DNA from: a virus
Lineage: Duplodnaviria; Heunggongvirae; Uroviricota; Caudoviricetes
Length of the DNA stretch: 64,000 bases
IMG/VR virus record: IMGVR_UViG_646311924_000007
Coordinates: 1-64,000 of that record
Direction: 5' to 3' (one strand)
Numbering within the stretch: position 1 is the first letter of the stretch; every line of letters starts with the position of its first letter. The notes beneath the pieces are model-generated. The model had not been told where the DNA came from and did no database searches. It worked only from the letters and a program-made list of their open reading frames with translations. The translations under genes and the position numbers were made by a program. Positions 1 to 30,344 of the stretch are shown piece by piece.

Positions 1-17
1 ACATTATACGAAGTTAT
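1..17. other. loxP: partial loxP recombination site (last 4 nt of spacer plus right 13-bp arm TATACGAAGTTAT)
   Basis: Exact match to the right half of the canonical 34-bp loxP; cre follows downstream. Confidence 0.85.
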
Positions 18-29
18 CTTAAGGGTTAT

Positions 30-200: not shown

Positions 201-206
201 TGAAAA

Positions 207-428
207 ATGGGATATTCAGCTGCTAAAGTGTCCACTCATCTTGAGCTTGAGAAAAACCGTGGTTACTGGCGGGCAAAATGGTTTGAGCGTGATAGTTACC
301 AACTGTCATTATCTCGCGGTGAAGAGAAAATAGAACGCACGCGCGGTCGCTGGCGTTTCTATGACGAGAACCATAACCAGGTAAAGGCAGAGCCAATCCT
401 GTACACTCTGCTGAAAACAATAATTTAA
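207..428 (+). CDS. hypothetical small protein (73 aa) between loxP and cre
   Basis: ORF with AGAGG-like RBS upstream; no recognisable domain. Confidence 0.4.
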   Translation: MGYSAAKVSTHLELEKNRGYWRAKWFERDSYQLSLSRGEEKIERTRGRWRFYDENHNQVKAEPILYTLLKTII

Positions 429-447
429 CTTGATCATGAGGTGATGA

Positions 448-843
448 ATGTTTAATGGCCTGACAGATGCCAAGGTAAACGCCTTACTGAACGACGCAAA
501 ACAAAAAGCTGCTAACCCTGGAACGAATGAAAATGAACGTGCTATGGCTGTTGCAATTTGGGAGTTAGCAGAAGAAGTAAAGCGAAACCGCTTACTATAC
601 ACTCGGGTTTACCAGCAATTTGATGGTGCGAGCTGGATAGATATCGAAGAGGCTGAATATGCAACATGCAAAAAAGAAAAAAAGATTGTTCGGATTTTGC
701 ATAAAGCAGCAACCCCAATCACTGTAGAAATCCCCGATCACAGATATTTCGAGAACGATGATCTACCAGGGGATGTGATTCGAATTATTGATGAGATACT
801 TCATGAACAAGGCTTAACTGTTAAAATTACGCATAATAAATGA
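448..843 (+). CDS. hypothetical protein (131 aa), stop codon overlaps the cre ATG (ATGA)
   Basis: ORF in an AT-richer patch; translational coupling to cre; no recognisable domain. Confidence 0.5.
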   Translation: MFNGLTDAKVNALLNDAKQKAANPGTNENERAMAVAIWELAEEVKRNRLLYTRVYQQFDGASWIDIEEAEYATCKKEKKIVRILHKAATPITVEIPDHRYFENDDLPGDVIRIIDEILHEQGLTVKITHNK

Positions 844-1871
844 CTAATTCGTTAACCGTTCACCAAAATTTGCCTGCATTGCCGGTCGATGCAACGAGTG
901 ATGAGGTTCGCAAGAACCTGATGGACATGTTCAGGGATCGCCAGGCGTTTTCTGAGCATACCTGGAAAATGCTTCTGTCCGTTTGCCGGTCGTGGGCGGC
1001 ATGGTGCAAGTTGAATAACCGGAAATGGTTTCCCGCAGAACCTGAAGATGTTCGCGATTACCTTCTATATCTTCAGGCGCGTGGTCTGGCAGTAAAAACT
1101 ATCCAGCAACATTTGGGCCAGCTAAACATGCTTCATCGTCGGTCCGGGCTGCCACGACCAAGTGACAGCAATGCTGTTTCACTGGTCATGCGACGGATCC
1201 GAAAAGAAAACGTTGATGCCGGTGAGCGTGCAAAACAGGCGCTGGCGTTCGAACGCACTGATTTCGACCAGGTTCGTTCACTCATGGAAAATAGCGATCG
1301 CTGCCAGGATATACGTAATCTGGCATTTCTGGGGATTGCTTATAACACCCTGTTACGTATAGCTGAAATTTCCAGGATCAGGGTTAAAGATATCTCACGT
1401 ACTGACGGTGGGAGAATGTTAATCCATATTGGCAGAACGAAAACGCTGGTTAGCACCGCAGGTGTAGAGAAGGCACTTAGCCTGGGGGTAACTAAACTGG
1501 TTGAGCGATGGATTTCTGTCTCTGGTGTAGCTGATGATCCGAATAACTACCTGTTTTGCCGCGTCAGAAAAAATGGTGTTGCCGCGCCATCATCCACCAG
1601 CCAGCTATCAACTCGCGCCCTGGAAGGGATTTTTGAAGCAACTCACCGATTGATTTACGGGGCAAAAGATGACTCTGGTCAGCGATACCTGGCCTGGTCT
1701 GGACATAGTGCCCGTGTCGGTGCCGCGCGAGATATGGCCCGCGCCGGAGTTTCAATACCGGAGATCATGCAAGCTGGTGGCTGGACCAACGTAAATATTG
1801 TCATGAACTACATTCGTAACCTGGATAGTGAAACGGGGGCAATGGTGCGCCTGCTGGAAGATGGCGATTAG
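840..1871 (+). CDS. cre: Cre tyrosine site-specific recombinase (343 aa)
   Basis: Translation matches P1 Cre almost residue for residue as I remember it (MSNLLTVHQNLPALPVDATSDEVRKNLMDMFRDRQAFSEHTWK...); adjacent loxP. Confidence 0.97.
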   Translation: MTNSLTVHQNLPALPVDATSDEVRKNLMDMFRDRQAFSEHTWKMLLSVCRSWAAWCKLNNRKWFPAEPEDVRDYLLYLQARGLAVKTIQQHLGQLNMLHRRSGLPRPSDSNAVSLVMRRIRKENVDAGERAKQALAFERTDFDQVRSLMENSDRCQDIRNLAFLGIAYNTLLRIAEISRIRVKDISRTDGGRMLIHIGRTKTLVSTAGVEKALSLGVTKLVERWISVSGVADDPNNYLFCRVRKNGVAAPSSTSQLSTRALEGIFEATHRLIYGAKDDSGQRYLAWSGHSARVGAARDMARAGVSIPEIMQAGGWTNVNIVMNYIRNLDSETGAMVRLLEDGD

Positions 1872-1888
1872 CCGTTTATTTGCGCTTG

Positions 1889-1905
1889 ATTGCTCTAATT
1901 ATTTG
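1889..1905 (+). promoter_or_regulatory. C1 repressor operator-like site (ATTGCTCTAATTATTTG)
   Basis: 15/17 match to the P1 C1 operator consensus ATTGCTCTAATAAATTT, immediately upstream of ORF 1922. Confidence 0.6.
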
Positions 1906-1921
1906 ATATTTATGGTGACAC

Positions 1922-2233
1922 ATGCGGAAGGATTTCAAAATAGACGGAAAATATGTGGTGCTGTCTGTAAGCTCTCAAATTCAGTCACCATCTGTCATGG
2001 TCACCGTAAAGTTGAGCGATAGGATGCCTGATATCGACTCGATATCTGTTGCGTTCCCCGTTAAAAGCATGCGGAGTGCTGAACATTTTGTGATGAATGC
2101 AACGGAGGAGGAAGCGCGGCGCGGGCTTACTAGAGTGATGGCGGAATTTGGCGAACTCCTGGGTAAGGTAAACAATGCCCTTTCAATCAGTTCAGCAAGA
2201 TCCAAAGCGTTAACAGCTTCCATGATGAAATAA
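1922..2233 (+). CDS. hypothetical protein (103 aa) behind a C1 operator
   Basis: ORF with ATG start; operator upstream; no HNH or other motif seen. Confidence 0.45.
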   Translation: MRKDFKIDGKYVVLSVSSQIQSPSVMVTVKLSDRMPDIDSISVAFPVKSMRSAEHFVMNATEEEARRGLTRVMAEFGELLGKVNNALSISSARSKALTASMMK

Positions 2234-2257
2234 AAAAAGCCTGGCAAGGAGCCAGGC
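2233..2257 (-). terminator. hairpin GCCTGGC-AAGGA-GCCAGGC with U-run on the minus strand
   Basis: Stem-loop followed by a T-run on the minus strand, downstream of the minus-strand ant-like gene. Confidence 0.5.
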
Positions 2258-2445
2258 TGCACAAAAGAGCGGGTTTGTATTCCGCATCCAATCAATCAAG
2301 AAGGAGTATAGCACACAGGTACTGAAGTAAAAATGTGATAAACATGAAATGAAATATCTTCTATTGCTCTAATTTGGAGGTATAATTGAGCCGCAGTTTT
2401 AGTCAACTACAAAAACATTGCCATTACAGACTCCGTGACATCATT

Positions 2446-2469
2446 GGCGGCCTAAAGGCCGCCTTTTTT
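2446..2469 (+). terminator. rho-independent terminator GGCGGCC-TAAA-GGCCGCC-TTTTTT
   Basis: Perfect 7-bp stem plus T6 run on the plus strand. Confidence 0.7.
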
Positions 2470-2471
2470 AA

Positions 2472-3587
2472 TCACTCAGCCGCTACAGGCTTTAATAAAC
2501 CAGCGTCAAGCAGCTTACGCGTCAACCACTGTTGGCCTTTCCCCGTTAGCTGGGGCGTCAACCGTATCTGGTAGCCATCTTCATCATCCAGTACCACTTC
2601 TTTCACCGTGAAATACCCGGCGTTGATGTATTGCTGGAACGGTACATTTTTACGTCCGCCAGACGCAATCAGGATGCCGTTCTCACGCAACCAGGCAAAC
2701 AGTGCGTTTTGCTTCAGTCCAACAACCTTTGCAAAATTCCCAATCAGGATCCCCTTAGCCACTGATACCCGGTCGGCAAAATCGACTTTAGGGGCTGCGG
2801 CCACCAGCTGCTGATTTAGCTGGTGGGCTTTCTGTTCCAATAGTTGCTTTTGTTCAGCCAGCTCGGCAGCCAGGCGTAGGGCTTCTGGTAATGTTTGGGG
2901 GATTGCGACCGGTTGCTGTTCTTTTTGTCGGAAGTAGCTGTCTTCCAGTTTTTCAAAGAATGCCCATGCCTGATCGGTTTCGAGCATTTTAGCGTGACGG
3001 GCAGCTCCTCGTTCTGTCCACAGGATGAGAGAGCGCGCTTTGGGGGAGACTGGATTTTGTGAGTAGTTTAAAGCTACCCGCAAATTTTTCAGCTCATCGC
3101 CAATAACCTTGAAAAAGTGCTTCCCTTCAACAAAGCGTACTTTGTTCTCATGATGATTTTGGCGAATACGGATTGTTTCTGTCCCATACCCTCTAGCAAG
3201 AGTCTCGGTTGTCACTACACGCACTCCCAGCCATTCCAGAACGGGAATTTCATCAGACTGATTCTGAACAACCACCAGCTCTGACTCCTGAACTGAAGGC
3301 GCATGAACTTTTTCTGATTTAACGTTAGTTGCTTTCATTCTGTGTGCCTCCTTGCGTGTTTCGGCTGCGACGGTTGCGTAATTCAGATGACCCTGTTCGA
3401 GCAGGTATTCGCGGATATCAGACAGCAGGATGCGGTGAACCGCGTTCTTGTCCTTTCTCCGGTAAAGTTGTTTGGTGATCATGAAGTAGTTGGCTATAAC
3501 GCCTGGTATATCCCTGGTACTGATACAAGCAGTGTGCTGTTCAATTGCCTCGATCATCTCTTCACGGGTGACTAATGACGTTCTCAT
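2472..3587 (-). CDS. antirepressor-like protein with Rha-like central domain and KilAC-type C-terminal domain (371 aa from the ATG overlapping the icd stop)
   Basis: N-terminal 90 aa and C-terminal 120 aa nearly identical to the ant product at 40942-41979; central part differs and resembles phage Rha regulatory proteins; ATGA overlap with upstream icd-like gene. Confidence 0.75.
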   Translation of the reverse strand: MRTSLVTREEMIEAIEQHTACISTRDIPGVIANYFMITKQLYRRKDKNAVHRILLSDIREYLLEQGHLNYATVAAETRKEAHRMKATNVKSEKVHAPSVQESELVVVQNQSDEIPVLEWLGVRVVTTETLARGYGTETIRIRQNHHENKVRFVEGKHFFKVIGDELKNLRVALNYSQNPVSPKARSLILWTERGAARHAKMLETDQAWAFFEKLEDSYFRQKEQQPVAIPQTLPEALRLAAELAEQKQLLEQKAHQLNQQLVAAAPKVDFADRVSVAKGILIGNFAKVVGLKQNALFAWLRENGILIASGGRKNVPFQQYINAGYFTVKEVVLDDEDGYQIRLTPQLTGKGQQWLTRKLLDAGLLKPVAAE

Positions 3588-3805
3588 AGTCCCTCCTGAG
3601 CACAAGCGTTTACAGGGAGGCACCAGTAACTGAGAGAATTGCGCAAATCGGTAGAAAAACGGGCGGAGAAAATGCAGGGAGCATCCGGAAGCTGAGAGCG
3701 AGCCTCATCTTCTGTCGGTGCAATAACGAAGTGATAGTGACGTTTCTGGCAGGAGTAGAAGCGCCAGATGAATTCAGGGCGTGCGCAAGGATTGGCATTA
3801 ACCAT
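3584..3805 (-). CDS. Icd-like protein (73 aa), second copy
   Basis: MVNANPCARPEFIWRFYSC... paralogue of the icd product at 40724-40945; same length. Confidence 0.75.
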   Translation of the reverse strand: MVNANPCARPEFIWRFYSCQKRHYHFVIAPTEDEARSQLPDAPCIFSARFSTDLRNSLSYWCLPVNACAQEGL

Positions 3806-3838
3806 AGTTACGGCCTCATGTACAGGTTTAACAACCTG

Positions 3839-3919
3839 CTACCCGCTGTCAAACAGGTGGCAGGACGTGACGGGGTTGACAGACTGGCGTACATGAAACC
3901 AGCAGGCCGAAGCCTCCCC
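3839..3919 (-). ncRNA. c4-like antisense immunity RNA, variant specificity (approximate bounds)
   Basis: Mirror image of the 40610-40690 region with substitutions confined to mutually complementary elements (CATGTAC vs GTACATG; stem CTGTCAA/TTGACAG). Confidence 0.55.
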
Positions 3920-4121
3920 ATCACGCCCCACCATAATTTGGGCGTAACGCGGTTTTACGGACATAAAAATACCGCAATATCGGAAATCTGCGGTTATCCG
4001 CATGTACATTCAGGCTGTCAAACCCGGTCGCAGAATTTGCTACGACGGTGGAACTATAAGCCTGAACGACGGGAAGATCAATAGTCTGGTGTCAATGGTA
4101 GTATTTTTGCCCCAATAAATC

Positions 4122-4138
4122 AAATTCATTAGAGCAAT
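4122..4138 (-). promoter_or_regulatory. C1 operator-like site (minus strand ATTGCTCTAATGAATTT)
   Basis: 16/17 match to C1 operator consensus, upstream of the c4-like/icd-like/ant-like module. Confidence 0.6.
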
Positions 4139-4246
4139 ACAAATCTGGTTGAATGTTTCCTCTCCGAGGTTGCAATGTGCACACTTATTGTTTTATTTGT
4201 ATGCACTAATAAATATATTATTTTTAATGATAAATGATTGACAACT

Positions 4247-4270
4247 GACAAGTGACTTCAGTCAGAATCA
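4247..4270 (+). promoter_or_regulatory. putative late promoter (GACAAGTGACT element plus -10-like CAGAAT)
   Basis: Same AACAAGTGACT-N5-TAnnnT arrangement recurs upstream of prt, lyz, pmgC-like and the capsid-like gene. Confidence 0.4.
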
Positions 4271-4398
4271 TCACACGCCCGGTACGGATGGATCCCTTTT
4301 CAAATATTCCATGGACGGCACAGTCTGAGTACCGGGCGCTACCTTCAGTTGTATTGCTAAGCCGCCGCTGGTGGCTTTTCTTTTTTGTAGGGGGCGCT

Positions 4399-5040
4399 AT
4401 GGATAAGAAAATATGCGTTGTTTCGATGAGCGTCGGCAAACCGGCGTCAATGACTGCTGCATGGATCAACAACGAGCTGATAATGGCTGAGCGGACCAGC
4501 TACCCTGAACGCCGCCGCGATATGGAACTCCAGCTGCTGCGCGAATTGCGAGAAAAAGAGGAAAAGGGTTTTATCGTGCTGGTGGAAGAGGAAAACAGCT
4601 TTATTACTGGTCGAGTTGGCCAGCGTGTAAGGTTGCGCGATCCCTTCATGAACGGCAGGCCGGTACTGATTGAAGCAATGCAGATTTACAAGGAGCTGGA
4701 ACGCCAGAAAGCGATCAAGTTACCGCGCAAGGAATCCGGCAAATACATCCTCCACCAAAGCATCTTCGATTCCGAACACGATAAAAAAGGCGATGAATTT
4801 TTCAACATCAACTGGAGTGAAATAACGACAGAGCATGTTCTGACGTTACTATGTTGCTTTGCGACGGAATACAACAACGTTGCCAGCGCCGACTACATCA
4901 GGGCAATGGCTGGAGAAGTTGAGGCCCGCCAGGAACCATCGTTACTAAGCCCTCTGATTAACATAATTCGCGGAACCCAAACACTGGCGCAAAAACAAGT
5001 ACCACGAGGGGAATTGACGGGTAAAGGTAATTATCTCTGA
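4399..5040 (+). CDS. hypothetical late protein (213 aa; longer ORF from 4252 unlikely)
   Basis: ATG at 4399 with GGGGG RBS; late-promoter-like element upstream; no domain recognised; could correspond to P1 mat by position. Confidence 0.45.
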   Translation: MDKKICVVSMSVGKPASMTAAWINNELIMAERTSYPERRRDMELQLLRELREKEEKGFIVLVEEENSFITGRVGQRVRLRDPFMNGRPVLIEAMQIYKELERQKAIKLPRKESGKYILHQSIFDSEHDKKGDEFFNINWSEITTEHVLTLLCCFATEYNNVASADYIRAMAGEVEARQEPSLLSPLINIIRGTQTLAQKQVPRGELTGKGNYL

Positions 5041-5798: not shown

Positions 5799-8700
5799 TT
5801 ATGCGTATTGTTGGATGACGGCCAGAACGTCCGCCACGTTGTGTTTTGTCTCGATAATCCACCAGTTACCCGGGAAATCGCTGTTCTTCGCCTTCGCTGG
5901 CAGCCAGCGAGCGCCGAATTTCGCCTTGATTGCGTCTTTCGCACGGAAAAGAACGCCTTTCATGCCTGAGGCTTCCTGAAGCCCAAATACCTCGCCAGCG
6001 GCGAATTTTGGTGCGTACATCATCTTCAGGTCGGCGGTGGATACGCGATAATTCAGACCAAGAGACTGAGCTATGCTGGTGGCATCACCCTGTATTGATG
6101 ATAACTCTTCTTGTTTCTCGTTTCTGGCGGCAATTTCTTCCTCCGTGATGTTGCCAAGGGCCAGGTTTATCCGATCAGCGTCGGCCTGTTTCTCTTCATC
6201 GGTGCGCCCGGCAAGAACCGTGTTAATTCTCTGCAATATCTCCACATGATTCTTGCGCATGCTGAGCAATTCCGGCGTAACCTCGTTAAGATCCACCAGC
6301 CCAAGGATGGCAAGGTCGGAAAACATTGATACCAGGTTGTAGGTCATGCGATAGCTGAGTTGACCATAGGCTGATGGCAACTTCACCGCATCCATTTGAT
6401 AGGCATCCATAAATTTAGAGCCGTCGTTTACGACATCCGCAATTGCAGGTGTGATTTTCCCTGTGGTGGCGGCCTCCCTGATTGCTGTTACCCACGATTG
6501 AGTCAGTGCGGCGACTGCATGATTCAGATTGGCTTCCCGTTCTGCTGCGATACGCGCGCTTGCTGCGTCCATTGCCTGCTTGATCTCGGCTTTATTGCTG
6601 TAAATGCCAATGGTGCCAAACTGTGCTGTGGTGATCTCATAATCTGACGCCCGGAACTCATGGGTACCGAAAATGGCATTGGTGACCTCAAGTTCAGAAT
6701 CCCCGTTACGAGTAGCCCCCTGGCTTGTTTTCTCCGGCATTCTGGCGATCGCATCCGCTATTTTCTCCTGAATTGCTTCAGGGGATAGCGTATCTCCATA
6801 TGACGCGATTACATCGCCATAATTGGAGCCAAACAGTTCAGTCAGGAATACTTCTGCCAAACGGACCTGGCGGTTATTCCCTTCAGACATCATACCAAGC
6901 ACCCATTTTGCAATTGACGACTTCAGCGCGCCGTCACGGCGATCCGGGTAAACCGCATGCTTCAGTGGGTCCGTATAGGTACCAACAAAATCAATGCTAT
7001 AGCCTGACTCTGTAGTCTGAACGCCGTATGAGTCAGTGATTTTGATCATGCCGCGCTGCTGGAAACGGTAGAAATCGTCACAGGAAATGATGTCGTTAAT
7101 CCCGGCGATGGAGACGCCACCACTGATTTTCTGCATAACAGCATCTTCATCGGGAGTTACATCAACCTGTTTATCCAGCGTCTTCACATCCCAGTTACCC
7201 GATTTGGTACCTTTGAAGGTAAAGATAATCTCCACGTCTGCGCGCTGGCTGTCGAAGTCCAGCGACTTAATGCGAACGATATCACCGGCACAATCGTAGT
7301 ATTGGCCTACACGCCATGAGCGATCGCCGATAATAAGGAACTCACTCGCATGGTTAACCAGGTCAGGATCAACATCCAGAATGCCTTTATTTATTGCATC
7401 CTCCACCAGCGGGCGAAGGCGTTTGATATCCGTCGCGGCCTTCTGAGTACGGTTCAATAATTTCTCATAGCGGGAGATGGCTTGAGAGATATTAGCCTTG
7501 CGCTGAATGGCGCTTTTCAACGACGCGCGATACTGTGCTAACAACGTACGGTCTGTGTGATGGACGCTACCCCAGCGGGCTTTCCAGTCTGCGTTATCAG
7601 CTGCTTTGGCCATTACCGCCTGTTTGAATTTGGCGACGTCGGCGGTGGTCTTTTCGAGTTCCGCTTTTCTTCGCTCTAATTCAGCGGTAAGCACCTCCAC
7701 ATCCTCACCAGCTGCGTGCTGCGCCTTGATGTAGTTCTGAAGGTCGATAGTAGCCTGTTCTTTCTGGCGAGCGCGTTGCGCGGCTTTCGCCTTATCCATT
7801 TGAACCTGCATCATTGCCAGACGTTCGCCATCATCCTTAGCGGTATACATCTGCATTTCGATCATATCGTTGGCGTCGGCGTTCTCCATTTCTGACTTAT
7901 CTGAACGGAGGATATCGGAGATCCAGCCTGCTTTACGCTTCAGCGTCTTCAGTCGGTATTCATCGAAAGAACCCTTGCCGCAGTAGTAGTGAACGCGAAC
8001 GCTTGCACGGTTGGAACCAACTCGGGCACCGCGACCGTTACGCTGTGCGATACTGGCTGGTGTCCATGGCAACGTCAGATGATGGATGTCAGTCGTTCCT
8101 CGATGCAGGTTGATACCCACCTCTGCCTTTTTGTTGCAGATGATGATCGGAGTCCGGCCCTCCTGGAAGTCGGCAGCAATCTTTTCCAGCCCGCCCAGCG
8201 ACATTTCATTTTGCTGCGCGATATAGGCGTCATACAGAGCCATTTGCTCGTTGTATTTCGCTATCTGTGCATCTGTTGGTTCATCCGGTAGCTCTTTCGG
8301 CGGTTTAACCGCTTTCAGTTTCTTACCGGTTTTACCTGCCTCGGCAACCGTCTGAGCATTCAGTATCCCCACCTTTGAAGGTTCAAGGTTAAGAGCATTG
8401 CAGATAATGCGCTTGAGCTTCTGGTGCTGCGTTTTTTCATCGGTGAAGATGATTTGCTTACCTTCCGGGAAAAACTCCTTCAGCGTGGCAATCAGCTTCG
8501 CGTATTTGGGCGTAACGGGGTGAGTTACGGTCTGTTCGTCAATGCCAAACCTGGCCAGGCGCTTATTCACTTCCTGCTCGAACGCTTCCGGAACCTGCAA
8601 CTGAATAAACTCGCCCTTATCTATCAGGGAGTATTGCGATTGCTGCGTGATTGAATCATCACTGTCGTCGTCTTCGCTGGTGGCTTGTTTAGGCAAACTG

Positions 8701-11700
8701 TCCGCCAGCTGCTGCACCGCATCTGCGTACTCCGGCAGGAAACGATAGGTGATCCGGCGATAGTACAGGTCCATGTCAGTACATACGCGGTCCATATCCC
8801 TGATTATTGAGAAGATCGGACGGGCTTTCTCGTGCTCAATCACGCCGTCTTCATTGACCGAGGTCGTTACGCCATTGTTGGCTTTGGCCGCCGCTTCCGC
8901 CTGCTGACGCAATTCTTCATACGCCGCCAGTTGTTCTTCAGTAAGTGGTGCATCCTGCTGGTGTTCGTCCAGCTCCGGGATCTCCACGGTATCCTTAACG
9001 TCTTCCGCCGTTTTAAGCGTTACCCAGCGATGGAATATACCGCGCAGCGCATCAAGGTTTTCAAAGCCCACCAGCGCCATTTTTTCTTCAACTTCACCGC
9101 TGATTTTCTGTACCGTTTCCAGCCTGGTCTTGCCGAAGAATTTAACGAAGTCATCAGGACCGTAGATCCCCATCTTCTGCCAGTATTCCTTCGGCAGAAC
9201 ATGAGAAAGCATGTTGTATGCATCGATCGGGGTGTTAACGACTGGCGTTGCAGTCAGGAGAACCGGCCCGCGCCCGCCATTCTTTTTCATCAGGTACGCG
9301 TTTTTGATTGCCATATCCCGCGCCGATTGCGCCACCGCGCTGGTGGGCAGATAGGCCAGTTGTGACGCTTCGCGACCATTTTTATAGCTATTGCGGTAGT
9401 TGTGACCTTCGTCGGCGATCACACTATCGAAGCCCATATCCTCAAAGTACGGATACTTCTCTGCTTTTTCGGTACCGGTATCTGAATACTCCGACAATAC
9501 CCAGCGACGCGCCGCCTCTTTACGATGGGAGTCGGAATCCATTGCGCTGGCTACGCGCCCGGCGGCAACGAAGTCATAAAGCATGTCTTGTGCATGCTCA
9601 TCTACGGTGTCATCACGTAGCGGAATGCGGGCGTATTGTTCTTTGGTAAACACGACTGCACGGTAATTTGAGTGCGGGATCGCGTTCATCCGCGCCGTGA
9701 TAGTGGCTTCATCTGCCAGCTTAAGAGCATCGCGCATAACTGGAGTGCCATCAGTACCAAGAACAGGTTTACCGTTCTCATCGAGCACCGGCACCTGGCG
9801 AATCTGATCGCCATCCATCAGCACATCAAGACCGACGAACAGGTAGTTACTGAATGCCTCTTCACTCAGGAACTCTTTTGCTTCGTAATACCAGTTTTCC
9901 AGCACTGATTTAGGCACTACATAAGCAGTACGGGTGGAGCGACCGTTCTCATAGTTGAACGCCTCAAGCGCCAGCGCGGTCGTGGTTTTACCCAGCCCGG
10001 TGCCGAAGCCCAGGATGCCGCGCCCATCTTCGGACAGTCGGCGCACCTCGCTATTCTGGTAATCAAATGGCTGGCGCTTACCGCTTAATCCCTTCAACCC
10101 AAGCGGATCGCCAGAGTGTTCATACGGGATATTGCTATTGAACACATCGTTGTATTTGGCAACCAGCTCATCGTAGCGATCGTGCGTCTTGATCCACTTA
10201 TTGAACTGGTCCTCAAGCAGTGCCATCTGCTCGCGGTAGCCGTTCGCCGTCGCGCTATCTTTGCCACCGATACGCGCACCATTGAGATACTTTTCCAGCT
10301 GTGCCGGGAACCCGGTCGCGTTTTCACCTGATTTACGGTCCCACTCGTAGCGGATCTCGCCTGTTTCTTTATCCTTGCGCTGGACGACACCGTATCGGTG
10401 CCCGACGAACAGACCATCACCACCGTGATAGGTGTCAGAAACCATTTCGTCGCCTTCCAGCTGCACTGACTGCACATAGCGCAGATCCGGATAGCCGTTT
10501 TCCTGCAAAAACTCCAGAATGACGGAGCGGTCGAACCAACGGCTATTGAGCTTAAAGCGGATATTCTCTGCTGGCGTCTTGATGCGCTTCTCTTCGATCG
10601 CTGCCAGCTGATTAAGGACGTTGTTCTTTACTGGACCGTCGGGGAGCGTGGCGAGGAATTCCTGTTTTGGAGCCACTATCTCGTTAATGTCGCCGCTGGT
10701 GGCGCGGGCGAACGGAACAATCCCGCCATACGGTGAAACCACAATGCCAGGGGTGCTGGCCAATAAATTAAGCAACTCATCATCACTGGCTGGCAGTTCG
10801 CCGGTAAACGCAAGGCGGAAATCATCGAGCTGGATTGGATCGCGAGTGAGATCACTGTAGAGATAACGCAGGGTGTCCTGATAGCTGGTGGAGTCATAAC
10901 TGGCGCTGGAATCATGCGTAACCAGTTTTCCTGTCAGCTCGTCAGAAATAGTGCCATCCAGCTTAATTGCACCACGGAAAGCAAACCAGGCGCGCGCACC
11001 GCTCCCCGATAATTTCGCTATCGGACCGCGACCGGGGTTACCAAAACGGTCAATCTCTGCCTGCAAACGGGATACCAGAGAAAGGCGCTGCTGTTCGATT
11101 TGTTCAGCACTATGCCCGGCGGCCTTCATGTCCTGATATTCAATTAACATCCGGCCAATCATCGCCCCGCGATACAAGCGTTCACGGTATTTTTCAGGCT
11201 GGCTGTTAATCCAGTCCACCAGCTGCACCATATCGTCGCTGATTGATGTGGTGTACTTATCGCGGACATTTGCCATCTGGGTAAATGTCATGCCGAGACG
11301 GCCTTCTGTTGTAGTCAGGTTACGCTGAAGAGCCTCCCAGCTATCCGCGCCATAACTGGCAGCATCGATCTTAAGTTCCTTCCCGGCATCAGCTTCAATC
11401 CAGCGACCACCAGCATATTTTTGCCATACGCCATTAATCAGGCGCATTTCCCCTTCACCAACAACGTCTGCGGTCGGTGACGGTTCAGCCATATCGAGCA
11501 AAGACCAGTCGATACGGCTTTCGAAACGATGAATCAGCTTCGCTTTAAGAGCCTGGTTATCAATCTGACCGTCGGCACGAACCTCAATACGCCCCCGGAA
11601 GCCCTTTTCTTGGGTGCCATGAACAAACCGGCGGCCATCCTTTTCAAACCACTTGCCAGAAATAAACGTTGGCCAAAGCACATTTGCTGATTCAAGAGTG

Positions 11701-12566
11701 CTTTCATCCACCAGGGGGATTTTCTCAGCCATCTCTGCCGGATGTTTGCGCATCAGCACCACATCTACGACCGTACTGGTCCCGTTTGCGTCAAAAGTAC
11801 CGGTAGGCAAGCGGTGGGCACCAAGAAATTCTGCTTTCCGTGATAGGCGCAGGCGTAACCGCTTCATGTTTGAACCTGAAACAATGGACGGCGGCACAAT
11901 CACGCACATGAATCCGCCTGGCTTTATCTTGTCCAGCATGCGGAGCATGAAGTAAGAACCCATGTCCGTTTCTTCTGCGTAAGGCTTATCGATGTTGCGT
12001 GTGTTATCACGACCGCCGAACGGAACGTTACCCACAACATGGTCGAATGAATCGTTAGGTGTGCTTATAGCCAGCTGTTCGAACGGGGAAATCTGTACGC
12101 TGTCTTCCGGGTGTAACAACTGGTTTATACGACCGGAAACACTGCTGATCTCAGTCGCAGTCATCACCGTACCAACCGGTTTTGTCTCATTAAAAACGCC
12201 GGTGCCCGCCGATGGTTCCAGAGTGTTACCTACGTCCGCGCCGTAGAGCTTCATGATCTCCCAGACACCTTCAGCGATCGGCTTTGGTGTGTAATATTCG
12301 GAGACGGACCCGCCAATGCCGCCTTCACCGGTGTACCCAGCCAGGATCTGGCGCTGTTCATCTGTCAGTGTCGCGCCGTCCACCAGTGAATTAAGCAAAT
12401 CTATCGCCTTCTGATTCGCCTCCCGGCGCAGTCGGTCATAGCTTTTGCCTTCCACCTTTTCCACGCCGTATTTAATCGGCGCTCGGTGAGATGTTATTGC
12501 CCTAATGTATTTCAATATTTCGCTGACACTTGAACAGCGAAACACCCCCATAGATAGCTTGTTCAT
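5799..12566 (-). CDS. darB: DarB antirestriction protein (2255 aa) with N6-adenine methyltransferase-like and helicase (GFGTGLGKTT Walker A) regions
   Basis: Giant ORF of the length I recall for P1 DarB; helicase motifs visible; synteny with ulx/lxc and prt. Confidence 0.9.
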   Translation of the reverse strand: MNKLSMGVFRCSSVSEILKYIRAITSHRAPIKYGVEKVEGKSYDRLRREANQKAIDLLNSLVDGATLTDEQRQILAGYTGEGGIGGSVSEYYTPKPIAEGVWEIMKLYGADVGNTLEPSAGTGVFNETKPVGTVMTATEISSVSGRINQLLHPEDSVQISPFEQLAISTPNDSFDHVVGNVPFGGRDNTRNIDKPYAEETDMGSYFMLRMLDKIKPGGFMCVIVPPSIVSGSNMKRLRLRLSRKAEFLGAHRLPTGTFDANGTSTVVDVVLMRKHPAEMAEKIPLVDESTLESANVLWPTFISGKWFEKDGRRFVHGTQEKGFRGRIEVRADGQIDNQALKAKLIHRFESRIDWSLLDMAEPSPTADVVGEGEMRLINGVWQKYAGGRWIEADAGKELKIDAASYGADSWEALQRNLTTTEGRLGMTFTQMANVRDKYTTSISDDMVQLVDWINSQPEKYRERLYRGAMIGRMLIEYQDMKAAGHSAEQIEQQRLSLVSRLQAEIDRFGNPGRGPIAKLSGSGARAWFAFRGAIKLDGTISDELTGKLVTHDSSASYDSTSYQDTLRYLYSDLTRDPIQLDDFRLAFTGELPASDDELLNLLASTPGIVVSPYGGIVPFARATSGDINEIVAPKQEFLATLPDGPVKNNVLNQLAAIEEKRIKTPAENIRFKLNSRWFDRSVILEFLQENGYPDLRYVQSVQLEGDEMVSDTYHGGDGLFVGHRYGVVQRKDKETGEIRYEWDRKSGENATGFPAQLEKYLNGARIGGKDSATANGYREQMALLEDQFNKWIKTHDRYDELVAKYNDVFNSNIPYEHSGDPLGLKGLSGKRQPFDYQNSEVRRLSEDGRGILGFGTGLGKTTTALALEAFNYENGRSTRTAYVVPKSVLENWYYEAKEFLSEEAFSNYLFVGLDVLMDGDQIRQVPVLDENGKPVLGTDGTPVMRDALKLADEATITARMNAIPHSNYRAVVFTKEQYARIPLRDDTVDEHAQDMLYDFVAAGRVASAMDSDSHRKEAARRWVLSEYSDTGTEKAEKYPYFEDMGFDSVIADEGHNYRNSYKNGREASQLAYLPTSAVAQSARDMAIKNAYLMKKNGGRGPVLLTATPVVNTPIDAYNMLSHVLPKEYWQKMGIYGPDDFVKFFGKTRLETVQKISGEVEEKMALVGFENLDALRGIFHRWVTLKTAEDVKDTVEIPELDEHQQDAPLTEEQLAAYEELRQQAEAAAKANNGVTTSVNEDGVIEHEKARPIFSIIRDMDRVCTDMDLYYRRITYRFLPEYADAVQQLADSLPKQATSEDDDSDDSITQQSQYSLIDKGEFIQLQVPEAFEQEVNKRLARFGIDEQTVTHPVTPKYAKLIATLKEFFPEGKQIIFTDEKTQHQKLKRIICNALNLEPSKVGILNAQTVAEAGKTGKKLKAVKPPKELPDEPTDAQIAKYNEQMALYDAYIAQQNEMSLGGLEKIAADFQEGRTPIIICNKKAEVGINLHRGTTDIHHLTLPWTPASIAQRNGRGARVGSNRASVRVHYYCGKGSFDEYRLKTLKRKAGWISDILRSDKSEMENADANDMIEMQMYTAKDDGERLAMMQVQMDKAKAAQRARQKEQATIDLQNYIKAQHAAGEDVEVLTAELERRKAELEKTTADVAKFKQAVMAKAADNADWKARWGSVHHTDRTLLAQYRASLKSAIQRKANISQAISRYEKLLNRTQKAATDIKRLRPLVEDAINKGILDVDPDLVNHASEFLIIGDRSWRVGQYYDCAGDIVRIKSLDFDSQRADVEIIFTFKGTKSGNWDVKTLDKQVDVTPDEDAVMQKISGGVSIAGINDIISCDDFYRFQQRGMIKITDSYGVQTTESGYSIDFVGTYTDPLKHAVYPDRRDGALKSSIAKWVLGMMSEGNNRQVRLAEVFLTELFGSNYGDVIASYGDTLSPEAIQEKIADAIARMPEKTSQGATRNGDSELEVTNAIFGTHEFRASDYEITTAQFGTIGIYSNKAEIKQAMDAASARIAAEREANLNHAVAALTQSWVTAIREAATTGKITPAIADVVNDGSKFMDAYQMDAVKLPSAYGQLSYRMTYNLVSMFSDLAILGLVDLNEVTPELLSMRKNHVEILQRINTVLAGRTDEEKQADADRINLALGNITEEEIAARNEKQEELSSIQGDATSIAQSLGLNYRVSTADLKMMYAPKFAAGEVFGLQEASGMKGVLFRAKDAIKAKFGARWLPAKAKNSDFPGNWWIIETKHNVADVLAVIQQYA

Positions 12567-24798: not shown

Positions 24799-25219
24799 CC
24801 TGTGCGAGATTTATTACGTAACTTCTGCGGATTTGCTGAGTAACAGGGAAAATCCGATACAACGGGTTAATGAACGAGTCGCCATGCGTAACCATGACGT
24901 TGAAATGCCACAGCCGTTCTCCTTTACCCATATATTCAGTGGGTATGTACAACCATTCACTGTTTTCGCCCTGTTCAGCCGACGTCAGACAACGTTGTTC
25001 GCCTTCAATCACTGTCGTTGGCTTCTGAACATCGCGGATCCAATATCTGACCGTTGCGCCGCGCAAAAACGGGAATTTAGACCGGTATTTGAACGGCACC
25101 CGGATGAAACCCGGTTTAATTTCCACATCACCAAGTTCTAAATGCGTGATGTCCTTGCGTTTTAGCAAATAGCGATCGGCTAAGGCTAACGCAAGAGCGC
25201 ATACACCCCAGCCAATCAT
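24776..25219 (-). CDS. lydB: LydB-like antiholin (147 aa)
   Basis: Synteny downstream of the holin gene. Confidence 0.55.
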   Translation of the reverse strand: MIGWGVCALALALADRYLLKRKDITHLELGDVEIKPGFIRVPFKYRSKFPFLRGATVRYWIRDVQKPTTVIEGEQRCLTSAEQGENSEWLYIPTEYMGKGERLWHFNVMVTHGDSFINPLYRIFPVTQQIRRSYVINLAQDVSDDEK

Positions 25220-25545
25220 TTCCCACCTCCCTTTTTCACCAAACTTGTAAGAACATTCAGAATGCTATCGATATTCACTCGTTTCATCCCTGAAATCACC
25301 TCATGACCGTTATTGCTGGCTATCGTTACCATTAAGTACGTAATTGATAACTCCCAGCCCTCGTGTTGCCCCAATAGGTACGCCACCGCGCCAGCTGTCA
25401 CTGCAACAAAGATCTCCGTAACCAATCCCAACAAATTGCCAGACTGGCGACCGTCTCGGACATCCATCAGGAACGTGCCTATCCCACCAATTACTGAAAG
25501 CAGGAGCGCAATAGCAACTGGAGCTAATTCCTGTGTGTCAAGCAC
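25216..25545 (-). CDS. lydA: LydA-like holin (109 aa)
   Basis: Small protein with hydrophobic segments (LAPVAIALLLSVIGGIGTFLM; IFVAVTAGAVAYLLG); synteny. Confidence 0.65.
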   Translation of the reverse strand: MLDTQELAPVAIALLLSVIGGIGTFLMDVRDGRQSGNLLGLVTEIFVAVTAGAVAYLLGQHEGWELSITYLMVTIASNNGHEVISGMKRVNIDSILNVLTSLVKKGGGK

Positions 25546-26300
25546 AAGTTCCCTCCTACGTTGTCAGGAGGTAATGGTATGCAAAGTAACTTCTCAACCG
25601 GTCATGCAAAGACAACAAGCGGAAAAAGAAAAGCAAAGCCTGCTACAGCTCGTCAGGGATAAAACTCAGCTCTGGGACTCACAGTTACGGCTAGGCATTA
25701 TTTCCGTTCAGGGTAAACAAAAATTAACCGAGTGGATTCTCTATGCGCAGAAAGTCGAATCCACGGATACCTCCATCCTTCCAGTAACGTTTCCCGAAAA
25801 GCCGGAATGAGGAAAGGCCCGGAATCGGGCCTTAATTAATATCTATAAGCTCAACAAATAAGAGCTAACAATTTTGTTAATTTCCTCTGGAAATAATGCA
25901 TTGTGCTTATATATACCTGAAGCTATATTAAAGAGCGTCATGTAAAAAATAAACCAATCAATTAAATCTATTTTCAACAAACAAGTCAAAATTTTTAACA
26001 GATATGTATAGAAATGGCAAGCCATAAATTAATAATGACATCCTTAATAAGTCTAAAGAAACACTAAATAGATAAAATATAAATTATTACATCCAAAAAT
26101 ATAGAAAGTGTTGGCAATCTTGCAACTCATTATCAATACAATATTGACATCCCTTTAGCGCTCAGTTTAAAATTAACATTTGTGTTTACATTGTGCGTTG
26201 ATTTAGTTTAGCAGGAACGCAGTAACACACTGATGATTATTGTTTTAATTATAATGTCAATATATAAACATAGAAACCAAAAAATATAGGCAGTTGCAAT

Positions 26301-26873
26301 ATGTTATGTTACTTAATAGCTATTCACTTTGTCATCTTCGGGAATTCAAAAGCTCTATTGAGCTACTGGATGGCTGAAATCATCAGGCGTGAAAAAATGG
26401 ATGTTTGGCGACTATTAAGAGAGAAGAAGCAGCGCAATCGGAATTTCCTTTTCTGGTGGAGACTGGCTAATGAAATGTATATTAATGGCAATAAATTACA
26501 TAAGAAAGCAGCCAGAAAGTTAAACAATAATATAATTAACAGATTTGGTTGCGAAATTGGATTGGGCGCAAATATTGGAAAAGGTTTAACAATTCCCCAT
26601 CATACTGGAATTGTTGTTCATTTTGCTGTTGATGCTGGTGAAAATCTGGTTTTGCGACAGAATACTACCATTGGACAGGTAGATGGTGACATGCCTGGTT
26701 CAAGAGTAAAAATTGGTAATAACGTTGATATCGGAGCTAATTGTTGCATCATTGGATTATCACGTAAAATTGGGGATAATGTAAAAATAGGTGCAATGTC
26801 TTTTATAAATAAAGATATACCATCGAACTGCACATATATAACAAAAAAGAGCGGTGTTGTATTGTATAAATAG
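26301..26873 (+). CDS. hexapeptide-repeat acetyltransferase, serine-acetyltransferase/WcaB-like (190 aa; start may be 26370 or 26397)
   Basis: Left-handed beta-helix repeats (IGLGANIGKGLTI, IGNNVDIGANCCI, IGDNVKIGAMSFI); low GC. Confidence 0.7.
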   Translation: MLCYLIAIHFVIFGNSKALLSYWMAEIIRREKMDVWRLLREKKQRNRNFLFWWRLANEMYINGNKLHKKAARKLNNNIINRFGCEIGLGANIGKGLTIPHHTGIVVHFAVDAGENLVLRQNTTIGQVDGDMPGSRVKIGNNVDIGANCCIIGLSRKIGDNVKIGAMSFINKDIPSNCTYITKKSGVVLYK

Positions 26874-26881
26874 AGTACATG

Positions 26882-26920
26882 AAGCCATCAATATTTCTAT
26901 CGATGGCTTTATCCTTTTAT
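26882..26920 (+). terminator. terminator AAGCCATC...GATGGCTT plus U-run
   Basis: 8-bp stem and TTTATCCTTTTATT directly after the acetyltransferase stop. Confidence 0.65.
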
Positions 26921-27495
26921 TGCGGGGCGACTGGCCACTCAACATCCGATGCTACTGTTGTATCAACACGATTCAACAATACCCGATATGTCTTCCATGC
27001 AGTCAGTAACGATGCCTCTTCCTCCGTCGCAATATCCAAATCTACGGCATCCTGAAGTGGCGCAATATGCTCACTGGCCATCTGCATCAGGCTGTTTTTT
27101 GTTTCTTCCGCCTTCCGGATCCGGAACAGTTTTTCTGCTTCTGCATCTTTCACCCAGGCTGTGCCGTTCCACTTCTGAAACTCCCCTTCCGGGGATAACC
27201 AGGTGACATTTTCCGGTAATGGGCCAAGTTCAGAAATAAATAACGCGTCGCCGGAAGCCACGTCATAGACGGTTTTTCCCCGATGGTCTTCAACGAGATT
27301 CCACGATGCCTCATCACTGTTGAAAACGGCCACGAAGCCAGCCGGAATATCTGGCGGGGCAATATCGGTACTGTTTGCAGGCAGACCTGTATGAGGTGGA
27401 ATGTATGCATCACCTTCACCAATAAACTCATTGGTTCCGGTCAGTAGATTATAAATTTTTATGGTCCGTGATTGTTCACTCATTCTGAATGTCAT
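26917..27495 (-). CDS. U: tail fibre assembly protein (192 aa)
   Basis: Start overlaps the tail fibre stop (TAATG); typical Tfa size and position. Confidence 0.75.
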
Positions 27496-30344
27496 TATGC
27501 AAGCCTCACAATATAGTTAAATGCGATGTTTTTTACGGTGTTTTCTTCGTTACCCGTAGCGTTAACGGTGATGGTGTGTCCGTGGGGACCAATAATGACA
27601 GAATGGGCATGAGCACCAATGCCGATAGTGTGGTTATGGGCACCGATATATACATTGTGAGCATGCCCGCCTGCGCTCGACGTGGTACCAGTACCTAACG
27701 CAGCGTTAAAACCGGCTGATACACCATTCCCCGCGCCAGTGTGACCAACAGGTATATTGTGTGAATGATTTCCAGCGCTATTCGTAGTTTTTGTGCCGTA
27801 ATCAAATGAACTGGTCGTTTTAGTACCGTAATCAAACGACGATGTGGTTTTCGTCCCCAAATCCGTACTGGATGCGCTGGCGCTGTGGGTGTGCGATTTA
27901 ATGCCGTCCTGTTCCTGAGACAATACGGCACGACCACTGCCGGGCTTGCCCTTAATCGTCCAGCCACGCATATCAGGAATAACGCCTGACGGATAAGCCG
28001 CTGCAAGTTTCGGGTATGCAGATTTGTCAAAAGTCTGCCCCTGCATCAGGGCATAACCAGACGGAACGGTATCTGATGGCCACGGGATTGGTGCGCCGAC
28101 TGGGTAGCTTTCTGGTGGAAGATTTTTCGAGGTATAAACTTCTGCCCAGTCTTCCTCAAAACCATAACCGTCTCTTGAAGAACGGTAGAACAGACCACCA
28201 TTTCTGTAATGCGCCTTCATCTGCAAGGTCGGGCAACTTCCGACTCCGGTATAGAAGTTAACCAGAATATAGCTGTCGGCAGAGCGAATGACATTGTAAG
28301 CGCCTGATTCGGCATTCCAGGGAACGCCCCCATCCGCATCGGCATACGTATCCGTTGCTCTTCTGGCAAAAGCAGCAACATGCGCAGCGGTTAAAGTGAT
28401 ATCAGTAGAACCATCAAACGAGACGCCATTGATAGTACATGCTGTCTGCAACTTGGTCGCTGTAGCCGCATTACCAGAGGTGTCCTGATCCCCTTTGGCA
28501 TTGACGCCGGGAATTGAATCTTTTGACGTATAGACCTGCGCCCATTCAGACCAGTTGGCAGAATCAGTATCACGCCGCGAACGGATATGTACGGGCGCAT
28601 GGTCACCGCTCGTGCCACTCCAGCCAATGAATAACTCACCTTCGCCAGCAGCGGTGGCACCTTTAAGGTGAAGCACATTGCCATAGGTGGAAGGGTAGCC
28701 ATTGTTGTATGCCTCATACAGCTGAATCCCGGATGTTCCCTGTGCATTCGCCTCTAGGGCCGTTACGCGACCGCGAGATACCAGAGTATTGATATTAATG
28801 TCAGCCGAACCATCGAATCTGACGCCATTAATGTTTATGGCTGTTTTTAATTTCGTCGCGGTGTCGGCGTTCCCTGTCAGCGCCCCGGTGATCCCACCGT
28901 TGAAAGTCTGGCGTGCACTCCATTTGTTAGCCGTGCTCAACAGGGGGATCTTTTCACCGCTTGTGCCAAGTTCTCTTAAATCAAGGTATTGGATAACAGC
29001 AAGGACGCTTGTTTTGGCCAGAATATCGCGACCGACTGACGTTAAGTCAGTCTGAGAAATAGTGTCTGTACCGGTAAAGTACGGCAATTTATTTGCGCCT
29101 GTAGCAAGACCAGCAAGCGCGGTTAAAGTTGCATCCAGAGGCTGTTTGCCTGCCAGCGCATTTGTCATTGTTGTCGCAAAGTTCGGGTCATTACCAAGTG
29201 CTGCGGCAAGCTCATTCAGGGTATCAAGAGCTTCTGGTGATGAACCAACCAATGCGGATATGGCAGCTCTTACATAAGCGGTCGTAGCAATCTGCGTGTT
29301 ATTCGTACCCTGTGCAGCGGTAGGCGCAGTAGGTATTCCCGTTAATGCAGGACTTGCTAAAGGAGCTTTAAGAGCCAGAGCATTGTTGATAGTTGTGCTG
29401 AAATTCGGGTCGTTATTGATCGCAGCAGCTATTTCTTTAAGCGTATCCAGTGTGCCAGGTGCACCGTTGATAAGTGCCGTTATAGCTGCCTTAACAAAGG
29501 CTGTATTTGCGATCTGCGTGCTATTTGTACCTTGCGCTGCCGTCGGCGCGGTTGGCGTTCCTGTCAGACTCGGGCTTTCTATTGGCGCTTTGGTATCAGC
29601 AAGATCTTTTACAGACTTAACGGCTTTAGGGGTAGCCGCCATTGTTTCGCTGTCGCTGTTAGTTTCGCTACTGAGCTGAACTAATCCCTTTTGCGTTGTG
29701 CTTGCATCCTGCGCCGTATACTTACTGTTCGCCAGATCGTAGGCTTTTTTAACTGCCAGCGAACTTGCAGCAACATCACTTCTGCTACTGGTTACAGAGT
29801 CTGAAATATCAATGCCGATCGTGCGGTTAATACGCTCGGATGTATCAATCATCTCCTGGGTAATGGCTGATACTCCAGCAGGGATATTCACCGTACAAAC
29901 AAGCAGCTCCCCATCTCCTAACTGATATGAATCGGTATAGGTTCTGGTAACAAATTCAGCCGCATGAATATGTGACGCGGTATTAACCTGATAGGTATCC
30001 TCTCCAAGGAGGTATCTTCCCTTCAGCACAATTGCATATTTCTTGCCTGCACTAAGTGCAAGAGGAATATCCGTACATTGCTGAATAGTTACCTGGTAGA
30101 ATTCACCAATATCCACCGACGCCGCGCCTGCGGTTTTATCTCCATCCACTGAGGTGATTAACAGGTTCATCCCACCGCCAGGCTTAGGTAAGAAACCGGC
30201 ATAAAATCCCGGGTCAACAATCCCCCTGAATTTTCGGTTTAGCGCGGCTGACAGATATGGTTCGTGGTATTGCACATCAGCAACCAGAGCCAACGACTCG
30301 GGTGATGGGTAAGTAACCGATGTAACAACTGTAACGTCATTCAT
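27495..30344 (-). CDS. S: tail fibre protein (949 aa from MNDVTVV) with C-terminal His-rich GxHxH repeats
   Basis: Long fibrous ORF with Ala/Thr-rich repeats and HSHNIPVGH / [32 protein letters not shown] motifs; synteny R-S-U. Confidence 0.8.

Follow-up and report, generated by a model that had tools for sequence, protein, structure and literature searches.

The tail-fibre region described here belongs to a P1-like phage-plasmid, in which the invertible C segment very probably gained a foreign cassette and then lost its recombinase by deletion. The DNA analysed is a stretch of 64,000 nucleotides (nt), positions 1 to 64,000 of the IMG/VR virus record IMGVR_UViG_646311924_000007, and this whole stretch is called the window below. 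The gene under study encodes an acetyltransferase of 190 amino acids (aa) and is located in an AT-rich islet between the holin gene lydA and the tail-fibre operon. Judged from its predicted fold and conserved residues, the protein is a left-handed beta-helix (LbH) enzyme, for which a role in modifying the surface of the lysogen is tentatively proposed.

The lost inversion switch and the origin of the fibre cassette

The genes darA, hdf, lydB and lydA occupy the minus strand of the window up to 25545, and the tail-fibre operon R, S, tfa runs on the same strand from 30790 to 26917. Alignments of the window with P1 (NC_005856) and with JL22, a P1-like cin+ phage, showed that the homology to P1, which on the lydA side amounts to 98–99% identity, ends at 25605, just past the LPdar promoter, and resumes at 25606 within U'. 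From these alignments, a single deletion appears to have taken lydC, cin, cixL, Sv' and ~330 bp from the 5' end of U'. The features of the region are as follows.

25216–25545, minus strand: lydA holin gene, the last gene of the P1 backbone before the break (Pfam Phage_holin_3_3)
25605–25606, no strand: deletion junction, at which the interior of U' follows directly on the P1 lydA/LPdar side (breakpoints from BLAST comparison with P1 and JL22)
25574–25810, plus strand: truncated U' open reading frame (ORF) of 78 aa, the homologous part of which (25606–25810) corresponds to the C-terminal third of U', the tail-fibre chaperone of P1
25814–25833, plus strand: GC-rich hairpin that follows the stop codon of U' and is its old terminator (−15.1 kcal/mol, z = −2.8), conserved in five alleles
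25838–26300, no strand: AT-rich non-coding spacer (26.6% GC), found in P1-like plasmids only
26144–26173, plus strand: sigma-70 promoter-like site TTGACA-18-TAAAAT, with 11/12 matches in a consensus scan, ~130 nt upstream of the start codon
26301–26873, plus strand: LbH acetyltransferase of 190 aa, of the serine acetyltransferase (SAT)-like clan and PHROG 2154, named 'sacF' in JL22 and 'serine O-acetyltransferase' in RefSeq
26879–26912, no strand: hairpin where the acetyltransferase gene and tfa converge (−14.7 kcal/mol and z = −4.2 on the plus strand, with a U-rich tract after it; −16.5 kcal/mol and z = −4.4 on the minus strand)
26917–27495, minus strand: tfa, lambda-type tail-fibre assembly chaperone (Pfam Caudo_TAP, E = 7.6e-43)
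27495–30344, minus strand: tail-fibre gene S, with a P1-type constant part and a tip (27495–28103) in common with P2-like prophages
28406–28994, no strand: single retained copy of the ~0.6-kb inverted repeat of the C segment, matching both repeat arms in P1 and JL22
28971–28996, plus strand: orphan cixR, TTCTCTTAAATCAAGGTATTGGATAA, found by pattern search, one mismatch to P1 cixR

The window holds no functional P1-type inversion switch: cin is missing, cixR is the only site present, and of the second cassette only the last 205 bp of U' are left. Searches with tblastn found no Cin homologue in the 64-kb window, and none in the complete, closely related plasmid pE2865-1, which holds the same lone cixR. 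A preliminary description of this DNA had likewise reported no cin recombinase. Its statement that cix sites are absent was mistaken, the orphan cixR being contained in the inverted repeat copy that sits inside S. Furthermore, its statement that there are no alternative Sv'/U' cassettes holds for full cassettes, but the last 205 bp of U' and the U' terminator survive at 25606–25837. Having no partner site on the replicon, the orphan cixR cannot invert. It could be a target of chromosomal Pin/Gin-type invertases acting in trans. The site lies inside an expressed fibre gene and carries a C-to-T change beside the crossover dinucleotide.

The surviving part of U', with its terminator, has 86% nt identity to P1 U', and it was recognised both by a tblastn match to U' and by PHROG 3792/136 (tail assembly chaperone). 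The 78-aa ORF that includes it gets its start codons from the deletion junction. This remnant goes under the RefSeq name 'tail fiber assembly protein' and is annotated in both phage vB_EcoM-Ro157c2YLVW and pE2865-1. The fragment matches PHROG 3792 end to end (1–78 of 78), and a deletion remnant of U' seems to have seeded its own 'tail assembly chaperone' family in the databases.

Neither useful microhomology nor a cix-like sequence is seen at the deletion junction, and the deletion therefore looks illegitimate; a Cin-mediated deletion finds no support in the junction. The identical junction was found in 48 of 5426 complete E. coli genomes, in all cases on plasmids, largely of O111, O26 and O157 Shiga toxin-producing E. 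coli (STEC). It is also present in phage vB_EcoM-Ro157c2YLVW.

In JL22 the gene order is lydA-lydC-cin-cixL-Sv'-U'-(AT-rich spacer and acetyltransferase)-tfa-stf tip-cixR-Sc. The content is the same in plasmid p15648-1, where the internal segment is inverted with respect to the flanks. In that plasmid Sv'-U' is fused to Sc, and downstream of U' the acetyltransferase gene follows in the same direction. A third cin+ example is pLH09-a-D. Since the acetyltransferase gene lies within the C segment of these cin+ relatives, and does so in both orientations, the islet must have pre-existed there and flips with the fibre cassettes. The suggestion that the islet took the place of the cin switch is thus contradicted by JL22 and p15648-1, where U' and tfa flank the gene within the C segment; the deletion that took cin in the lineage of the window was a separate event.

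The acetyltransferase gene is found in JL22 and Ro157c2YLVW and missing from P1. The preliminary description had made its reading depend on the gene not being a conserved backbone gene of reference P1-like phages; the gene is lacking in the reference P1 but recurs in ~64 P1-like plasmids of complete E. coli genomes, which counts in part against that reading. The JL22 paper named it sacF and stated that the reason for its presence is not known (PMC9603915). Phage Ro157c2YLVW has the deletion junction of the window and ~99% identical flanks, but a JL22-type allele of the islet (93.6% in the spacer). This suggests either that the islet was swapped among P1-like plasmids after the cin deletion, or that the deletion was spread by recombination.

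The fibre genes give evidence on the source of the cassette. Residues 1–656 of P1 S are 96% identical over 30344–28377, and tfa has ~90% nt identity to lambda tfa. The stretch 26397–28103, which comprises the acetyltransferase gene from codon 33, tfa and the last ~200 fibre codons, matches a P2-like prophage of E. coli O104:H4 at 97.6% identity and those of other STEC at 93–95%. A fibre stretch of ~300 bp (28104–28398), located between the P2-like tip and the P1 inverted repeat, has no high-identity match to JL22 or to P2-like prophages, suggesting that the fibre gene also received sequence by recombination from a third source. Two acetyltransferase-tfa modules are found in E. coli O111:H8 strain 08-4455, one on the chromosome (NZ_CP077540.1) and one on a P1-like plasmid (NZ_CP077541.1). 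The chromosomal copy is in a prophage, has 94% nt identity and adjoins a tail fiber assembly gene. Two such copies in one strain readily offer material for recombination between phages, of the kind inferred at codon 33 of the acetyltransferase gene and described below.

In the proposed history, one arm of the C segment of a JL22/p15648-1-like ancestor would have acquired a foreign host-range cassette, made up of a fibre tip, a lambda-type tfa and a convergent LbH acetyltransferase gene, of a kind that appears to circulate in P2-like, other myoviral and lambdoid prophages. A later illegitimate deletion (25605/25606) would have taken away lydC, cin, cixL, Sv' and the greater part of U', and the segment would then have been frozen with the lambda/P2-type (Stf/Tfa) fibre expressed. 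The acetyltransferase gene was left convergent to the late fibre operon, and consequently relies on a promoter of its own. The cin-cix C segment of P1 and P7 (and gin-G of Mu) is the known system to which this region is most readily compared: the window backbone, the constant part of S, the one repeat copy, cixR and the 3' end of U' derive from it. The window differs in that cin, cixL, Sv' and most of U' are deleted, leaving the switch dead and locked, and in that one arm had apparently been replaced earlier by the lambda/P2-type tip-tfa cassette and the acetyltransferase gene. The cin+ sister plasmids still invert the segment that holds this gene.

The islet and its acetyltransferase

The islet (25811–26916) has a GC content of 32.0%, against a window mean of 48.0% (standard deviation 3.5%, 1.1-kb windows), and is the lowest-GC stretch of the 64 kb. 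The acetyltransferase gene has 35.1% GC, and 30.9% at third codon positions (GC3). The preliminary description had rightly recognised the low GC, the 190-aa ORF, its hexapeptide-repeat SAT/WcaB-like type, which family and structure searches bear out, and a terminator of its own, formed by the hairpin at 26879–26912 and the U-rich run after the stop codon. The islet as it was then delimited (25560–26920) is real, but this span includes the U' remnant, which is not low in GC. Likewise, in place of the ~700 bp described as AT-rich, the non-coding DNA really spans ~490 bp, and the gene with its 35% GC comes next. The proposal of a moron beside the tail fibres agrees well with the atypical GC, the promoter-like site, the flanking hairpins including the terminator, and the presence or absence of the gene among close relatives, all of which would be expected of a moron.

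The hairpin between the acetyltransferase gene and tfa is likely a bidirectional terminator, as predicted from its folding on both strands. Both hexamers of the promoter-like site are invariant in five aligned alleles, in which the spacer positions differ by 6–10%, and the site is predicted from its consensus match to be the promoter of the acetyltransferase gene. The spacer sequence gave blastn matches on 64 plasmids and on none of the chromosomes of the 5426 complete E. coli genomes. A 60-aa ORF on the minus strand of the spacer (25843–26025) was rejected as a gene; it has no Pfam or PHROG match, and sister alleles carry frameshifts or other disruptions in it.

No tandem or phase-variation repeats were found in 25400–27600, and no insertion sequence (IS) or transposon signature was found around the islet, where searches for direct and inverted repeats gave only short chance matches. 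An Rfam scan of 25400–27100 revealed no known RNA in the spacer; the scan gave two sub-threshold chance matches and a match to IS009 (RF02111) inside the tfa coding sequence (26954–27100, minus strand; 133.5 bits against a gathering threshold of 117). The IS009 match ends at the edge of the searched region. It probably reflects homology of a candidate E. coli small RNA locus to prophage tfa, and not a separate RNA gene.

The acetyltransferase ORF is intact. The Pfam families Hexapep and Hexapep_2 matched just under threshold (Hexapep 24.6 against a cut-off of 27), and no Pfam match to the SATase_N domain was found in the protein. The best score among the NCBIfam models was that of the EpsC-type model NF041874 (77.5 bits, cut-off 150), followed by TIGR01172 cysE (65.6 bits, cut-off 210.65), the WcaB model TIGR04016/NF007564 (56.5 bits, cut-off 194.65) and the full-length CysE model NF008349 (42.2, cut-off 397), where the match covers only positions 125–236 of 273. 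In contrast, PHROG 2154 was matched with E = 1.9e-83 over residues 13–190 (profile positions 3–181 of 185). No family of PADLOC, a collection of defence systems, was matched at E ≤ 0.1.

An AlphaFold2 model built from 61 homologues (pLDDT 91.9, pTM 0.85) has five N-terminal helices at residues 2–82, followed by a left-handed beta-helix. Its closest structural matches in the PDB, as well as the closest sequence matches there, are serine acetyltransferases (TM ~0.7 normalised to the query, Foldseek probability 1.0). His100, equivalent to the catalytic His158 of CysE, is conserved in 60 of the 61 family members, and the position of Glu85, equivalent to CysE Asp143, is Asp or Glu in every one. In E. 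coli CysE, the residues that bind the amino and carboxylate groups of serine are Asp157, Arg192 and His193. The equivalent of Asp157 is Pro99 in the window protein, and those of Arg192/His193 are Ser134/Arg135, which vary across the family. The model and alignment thus indicate a member of the LbH superfamily that has kept the catalytic His/acidic pair and is missing the serine-binding residues. As these residues are not kept and the equivalog thresholds are failed, the database name 'serine O-acetyltransferase' is probably wrong. With CysE, and with WcaB and EpsC, which are short sugar acetyltransferases of SAT-like type, the protein shares fold and clan, the catalytic His with its acidic partner, and a helical N-terminal extension preceding the LbH domain. 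It differs from them in scoring below every curated cut-off, in the missing serine-binding residues, and in the lack of a cys, wca or eps locus among the contexts examined.

The gene is intact and under purifying selection, with an overall dN/dS of 0.12–0.21. The first 32 codons were disputed, JL22 being annotated with a 158-aa form. Starts at M24 and M33 were rejected; the 32 codons are conserved at the protein level in P2-like copies with saturated synonymous change, these copies have a strong Shine-Dalgarno (SD) sequence (AAGGAG) and a GTG start upstream, and the codons are included in the confidently predicted fold. Comparison of the alleles in this way argues that the 190-aa form is real. 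Compared with P2-like copies, the first 32 codons have a nonsynonymous divergence (pN) of 0.26 and saturated synonymous divergence (pS), against a pN of 0.02 and a pS of 0.2 for the remainder. The far greater divergence of the first 32 codons suggests that the gene is a mosaic with a breakpoint at codon 33.

Distribution and association with tfa

The acetyltransferase gene was found in 529 of the 5426 complete E. coli genomes (~10%), mostly on chromosomes and mostly in prophages beside tfa. The carriers include O157:H7, O104:H4, O111 and O26 strains. In P2-like prophages the usual position is between gpU, in the same direction, and tfa, which is convergent. The P2-like prophage of O157:H7 is degraded, with an IS element in place of the fibre gene, and its 190-aa ORF is still intact. 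A 67%-identical paralogue occupies the same slot in another P2-like lineage, and an 88%-identical copy is found at the end of a different myoviral prophage, also convergent to tfa. A P2-like contig (L172) has the acetyltransferase gene between a tfa gene and a tail-sheath gene, a slot that, by the P2 gene order, we take to be the P2 Z/fun slot.

The linkage was followed further by scanning IMG/VR with the family alignment and searching the ORFs of the retrieved loci with a purpose-built Tfa profile; loci with at least 300 bp of downstream sequence, 75 in all, were considered informative. A convergent Tfa-family gene was located within 100 bp of the homologue in 67 of these 75 viral loci, a count that is inflated by near-identical P2-like prophages and represents ~10 distinct lineages. 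The linkage spans 42–100% identity of the acetyltransferase and 39–100% identity of Tfa. At least four flanking architectures were seen: P1-like, P2-like, myoviruses with DUF2612/Baseplate_J, and a lambdoid siphovirus with J-Stf-Tfa.

Exceptions to the linkage are a Salmonella copy beside an integrase, a copy on a virulence plasmid of enteropathogenic E. coli (EPEC) with Peptidase_A24 and SLT neighbours, which we presume from these families to be bfp pilus genes, and solitary chromosomal copies. All contexts examined were phage or other mobile elements, and none among them was a polysaccharide, cys, wca or eps cluster. The locus is common, it is already annotated, and it has already been remarked upon in the JL22 paper; what is new may be the breadth and persistence of the association between acetyltransferase and tfa.

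Elsewhere in the window, the segment 5036–12423 has no counterpart in pE2865-1, which has SIR2 and type III restriction-modification genes there. An ORF at 5799–12566 (minus strand, 2255 aa) encodes N6-methylase and SNF2/helicase domains; its length is that of P1 DarB. The segment is a variable anti-restriction/defence region.

Possible function and competing explanations

Cytoplasmic, acetyl-CoA-dependent O-acetylation of a sugar in an envelope glycan precursor, resulting in lysogenic conversion or exclusion, is the function that we tentatively propose, as a serious possibility that falls somewhat short of probable. The acceptor would most plausibly be the lipopolysaccharide (LPS) core or another oligosaccharide. 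The altered surface may then reduce adsorption of phages using that structure, among them perhaps phages that carry the fibre type of the cassette itself. In a Xenorhabdus bovienii prophage (L016–L018, 5001–6393) a GT25 glycosyltransferase gene is found 58 bp downstream of the homologue on the same strand, and the pair sits between an integrase and a tail-fibre gene. The pair is a candidate two-enzyme module for modification of LPS or lipooligosaccharide. Another viral contig has an HtrL/YibB gene, of a waa-locus family, between the acetyltransferase gene and tfa. As gene-neighbourhood evidence, these LPS-type partner genes in other prophages would modestly strengthen a role in surface modification. 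Taken together, the history and this function form the explanation that we favour on balance, with modest confidence.

The closest characterised analogue in kind may be NeuO, the gene of which lies near a tail gene. Like NeuO, the window protein is a putative prophage-borne, cytoplasmic LbH acetyltransferase dependent on acetyl-CoA and carried as non-essential cargo, which in the case of NeuO alters a surface glycan. NeuO is encoded by the E. coli K1 prophage CUS-3, O-acetylates the polysialic-acid capsule and affects phage sensitivity (PMC3046976; PMC13001214). The two differ in that NeuO is not among the PDB sequence matches at E ≤ 0.01, where the top structural matches are SATs, in that the window gene has no phase-variable repeat, and in that most hosts of the window gene (O157, O111, O26, O104) are not K1.

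Several observations weigh against this explanation. PHROG 2154 is labelled 'unknown function', and literature searches on the P2 hotspot, CP-933T, P1-like plasmids and exclusion turned up no characterised function, the one mention of the gene being that of the JL22 authors. O-acetylation of the E. coli core by such an enzyme is, to our knowledge, not an established phenomenon, and the LPS core is indicated as acceptor by just two gene-neighbourhood hints. The promoter is a consensus match only, and the start codon of the P1-like allele has a weak SD sequence. The adjacency to tfa, with its inflated count of linked loci, could be pure hitch-hiking with a highly mobile cassette. The EPEC plasmid copy and the solitary chromosomal copies lie away from fibre genes. 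Furthermore, homologues that are 39–51% identical and located on chromosomes of other species have no tfa within 5 kb, among the matches listed in a scan of genome-collection contigs, which were mostly distant, generic SAT-like genes and do not form an unbiased census.

The main rival explanation is accordingly that the gene is a generic hitch-hiking moron with a benefit to the lysogen unrelated to the neighbouring fibre, such as modification of capsule, colanic acid or O-antigen that serves immune or environmental fitness, or acetylation of a small molecule, located at the 3' end of fibre operons as a permissive and much exchanged site. We consider this possible, if rather unlikely. The unlinked homologues just mentioned (0 of the listed loci at 39–51% identity with tfa nearby) and the family members beside an integrase, on the EPEC plasmid or standing alone speak in its favour, and the same slot also holds unrelated cargo, namely methyltransferase, hok, HtrL and DUF1353 genes. 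In addition, the sopE moron has reportedly moved between P2-like and lambdoid phages via flanking fibre genes. A convergent tfa at 19–90 bp, on the other hand, persists down to 42% acetyltransferase identity and in four architectures, more than a random passenger would be expected to show, although closeness alone could explain it.

Morons close to fibre genes are well known: P2 has Z/fun between G and FI, SopE-phi and lambdoid phages have sopE, and T5 has llp by its receptor-binding gene. The window gene resembles them in being cargo placed where a fibre operon has its 3' end, in many cases with the opposite orientation, and in moving between unrelated phage families with flanking fibre sequence. 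It differs in the gene product, and in that exclusion has been shown for Llp and Fun, whereas here it is a candidate function.

Three other explanations are very improbable. Direct capture from a chromosomal polysaccharide locus (colanic acid, O-antigen or capsule), with insertion in place of the cin/C-segment switch, was the origin first suggested for the gene. It would fit the low GC, which is typical of such loci, and the best NCBIfam similarities, which are to EpsC, CysE and WcaB. The WcaB and EpsC scores are nevertheless far under their cut-offs. The close relatives are all phage-borne and beside tfa, in no examined context is the gene part of a polysaccharide cluster, and the stretch from codon 33 to the fibre tip is 97.6% identical to that of a P2-like prophage; there is no evidence of direct capture. 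Replacement of the switch is further opposed by the cin+ relatives that hold the gene within an intact C segment, and by the persistence of cixR, of the U' remnant and of one copy of the inverted repeat.

The RefSeq/GenBank name and the CysE enzymes as the nearest solved structures would suggest that the protein is a true serine O-acetyltransferase and that its gene, as an auxiliary metabolic gene, raises cysteine synthesis in lysogeny or lytic growth. An acidic residue at about position 31 may, by our own reading of the alignment, also correspond to CysE Asp92. This function is hardly credible for a protein of only 190 aa, which scores far below the cysE cut-offs (65.6 against 210.65; 42.2 against 397), matches the CysE model in positions 125–236 of 273 only, and has Pro99 and Ser134/Arg135 at the serine-binding positions.

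The tight and long-lived linkage to tfa and the fibre tip could also mean that the enzyme acetylates the tail fibre or Tfa, or is otherwise needed for fibre assembly, but this is most improbable, given that lambda has ~90% identical tfa and stf ends without the gene, that the gene is convergent to the late operon and not part of it, that it is kept in O157:H7 prophages with a destroyed fibre gene, and that we know of no LbH enzyme of the SAT-like clan acting on proteins.

Returning to acetylation of the cell surface, a more specific speculation, which we regard as unlikely, is that PHROG 2154 enzymes are a functional third component of the mobile host-range cassette of fibre tip and Tfa in temperate enterobacterial phages, acetylating the structure (probably the LPS core) that its own fibre binds. 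If so, the lysogen would resist phages that carry the same fibre, and progeny would be spared loss on lysed siblings. The gene for the enzyme flips with the fibre cassettes in the cin+ P1-like plasmids.

The P1-like lineage of the window is locked in its host range and common among plasmids of STEC, with 48 carriers among the 5426 complete genomes, and ~10% of complete E. coli genomes carry the misnamed 'serine acetyltransferase'. Were the gene a mere hitch-hiker, the locus would be ordinary. Its persistent position by tfa in four architectures makes it a cheap and clearly delimited candidate for exclusion or for modification of a receptor. Such a role, if true, would bear on the prediction of phage host range, on P1-based transduction tools and on phage therapy of STEC.

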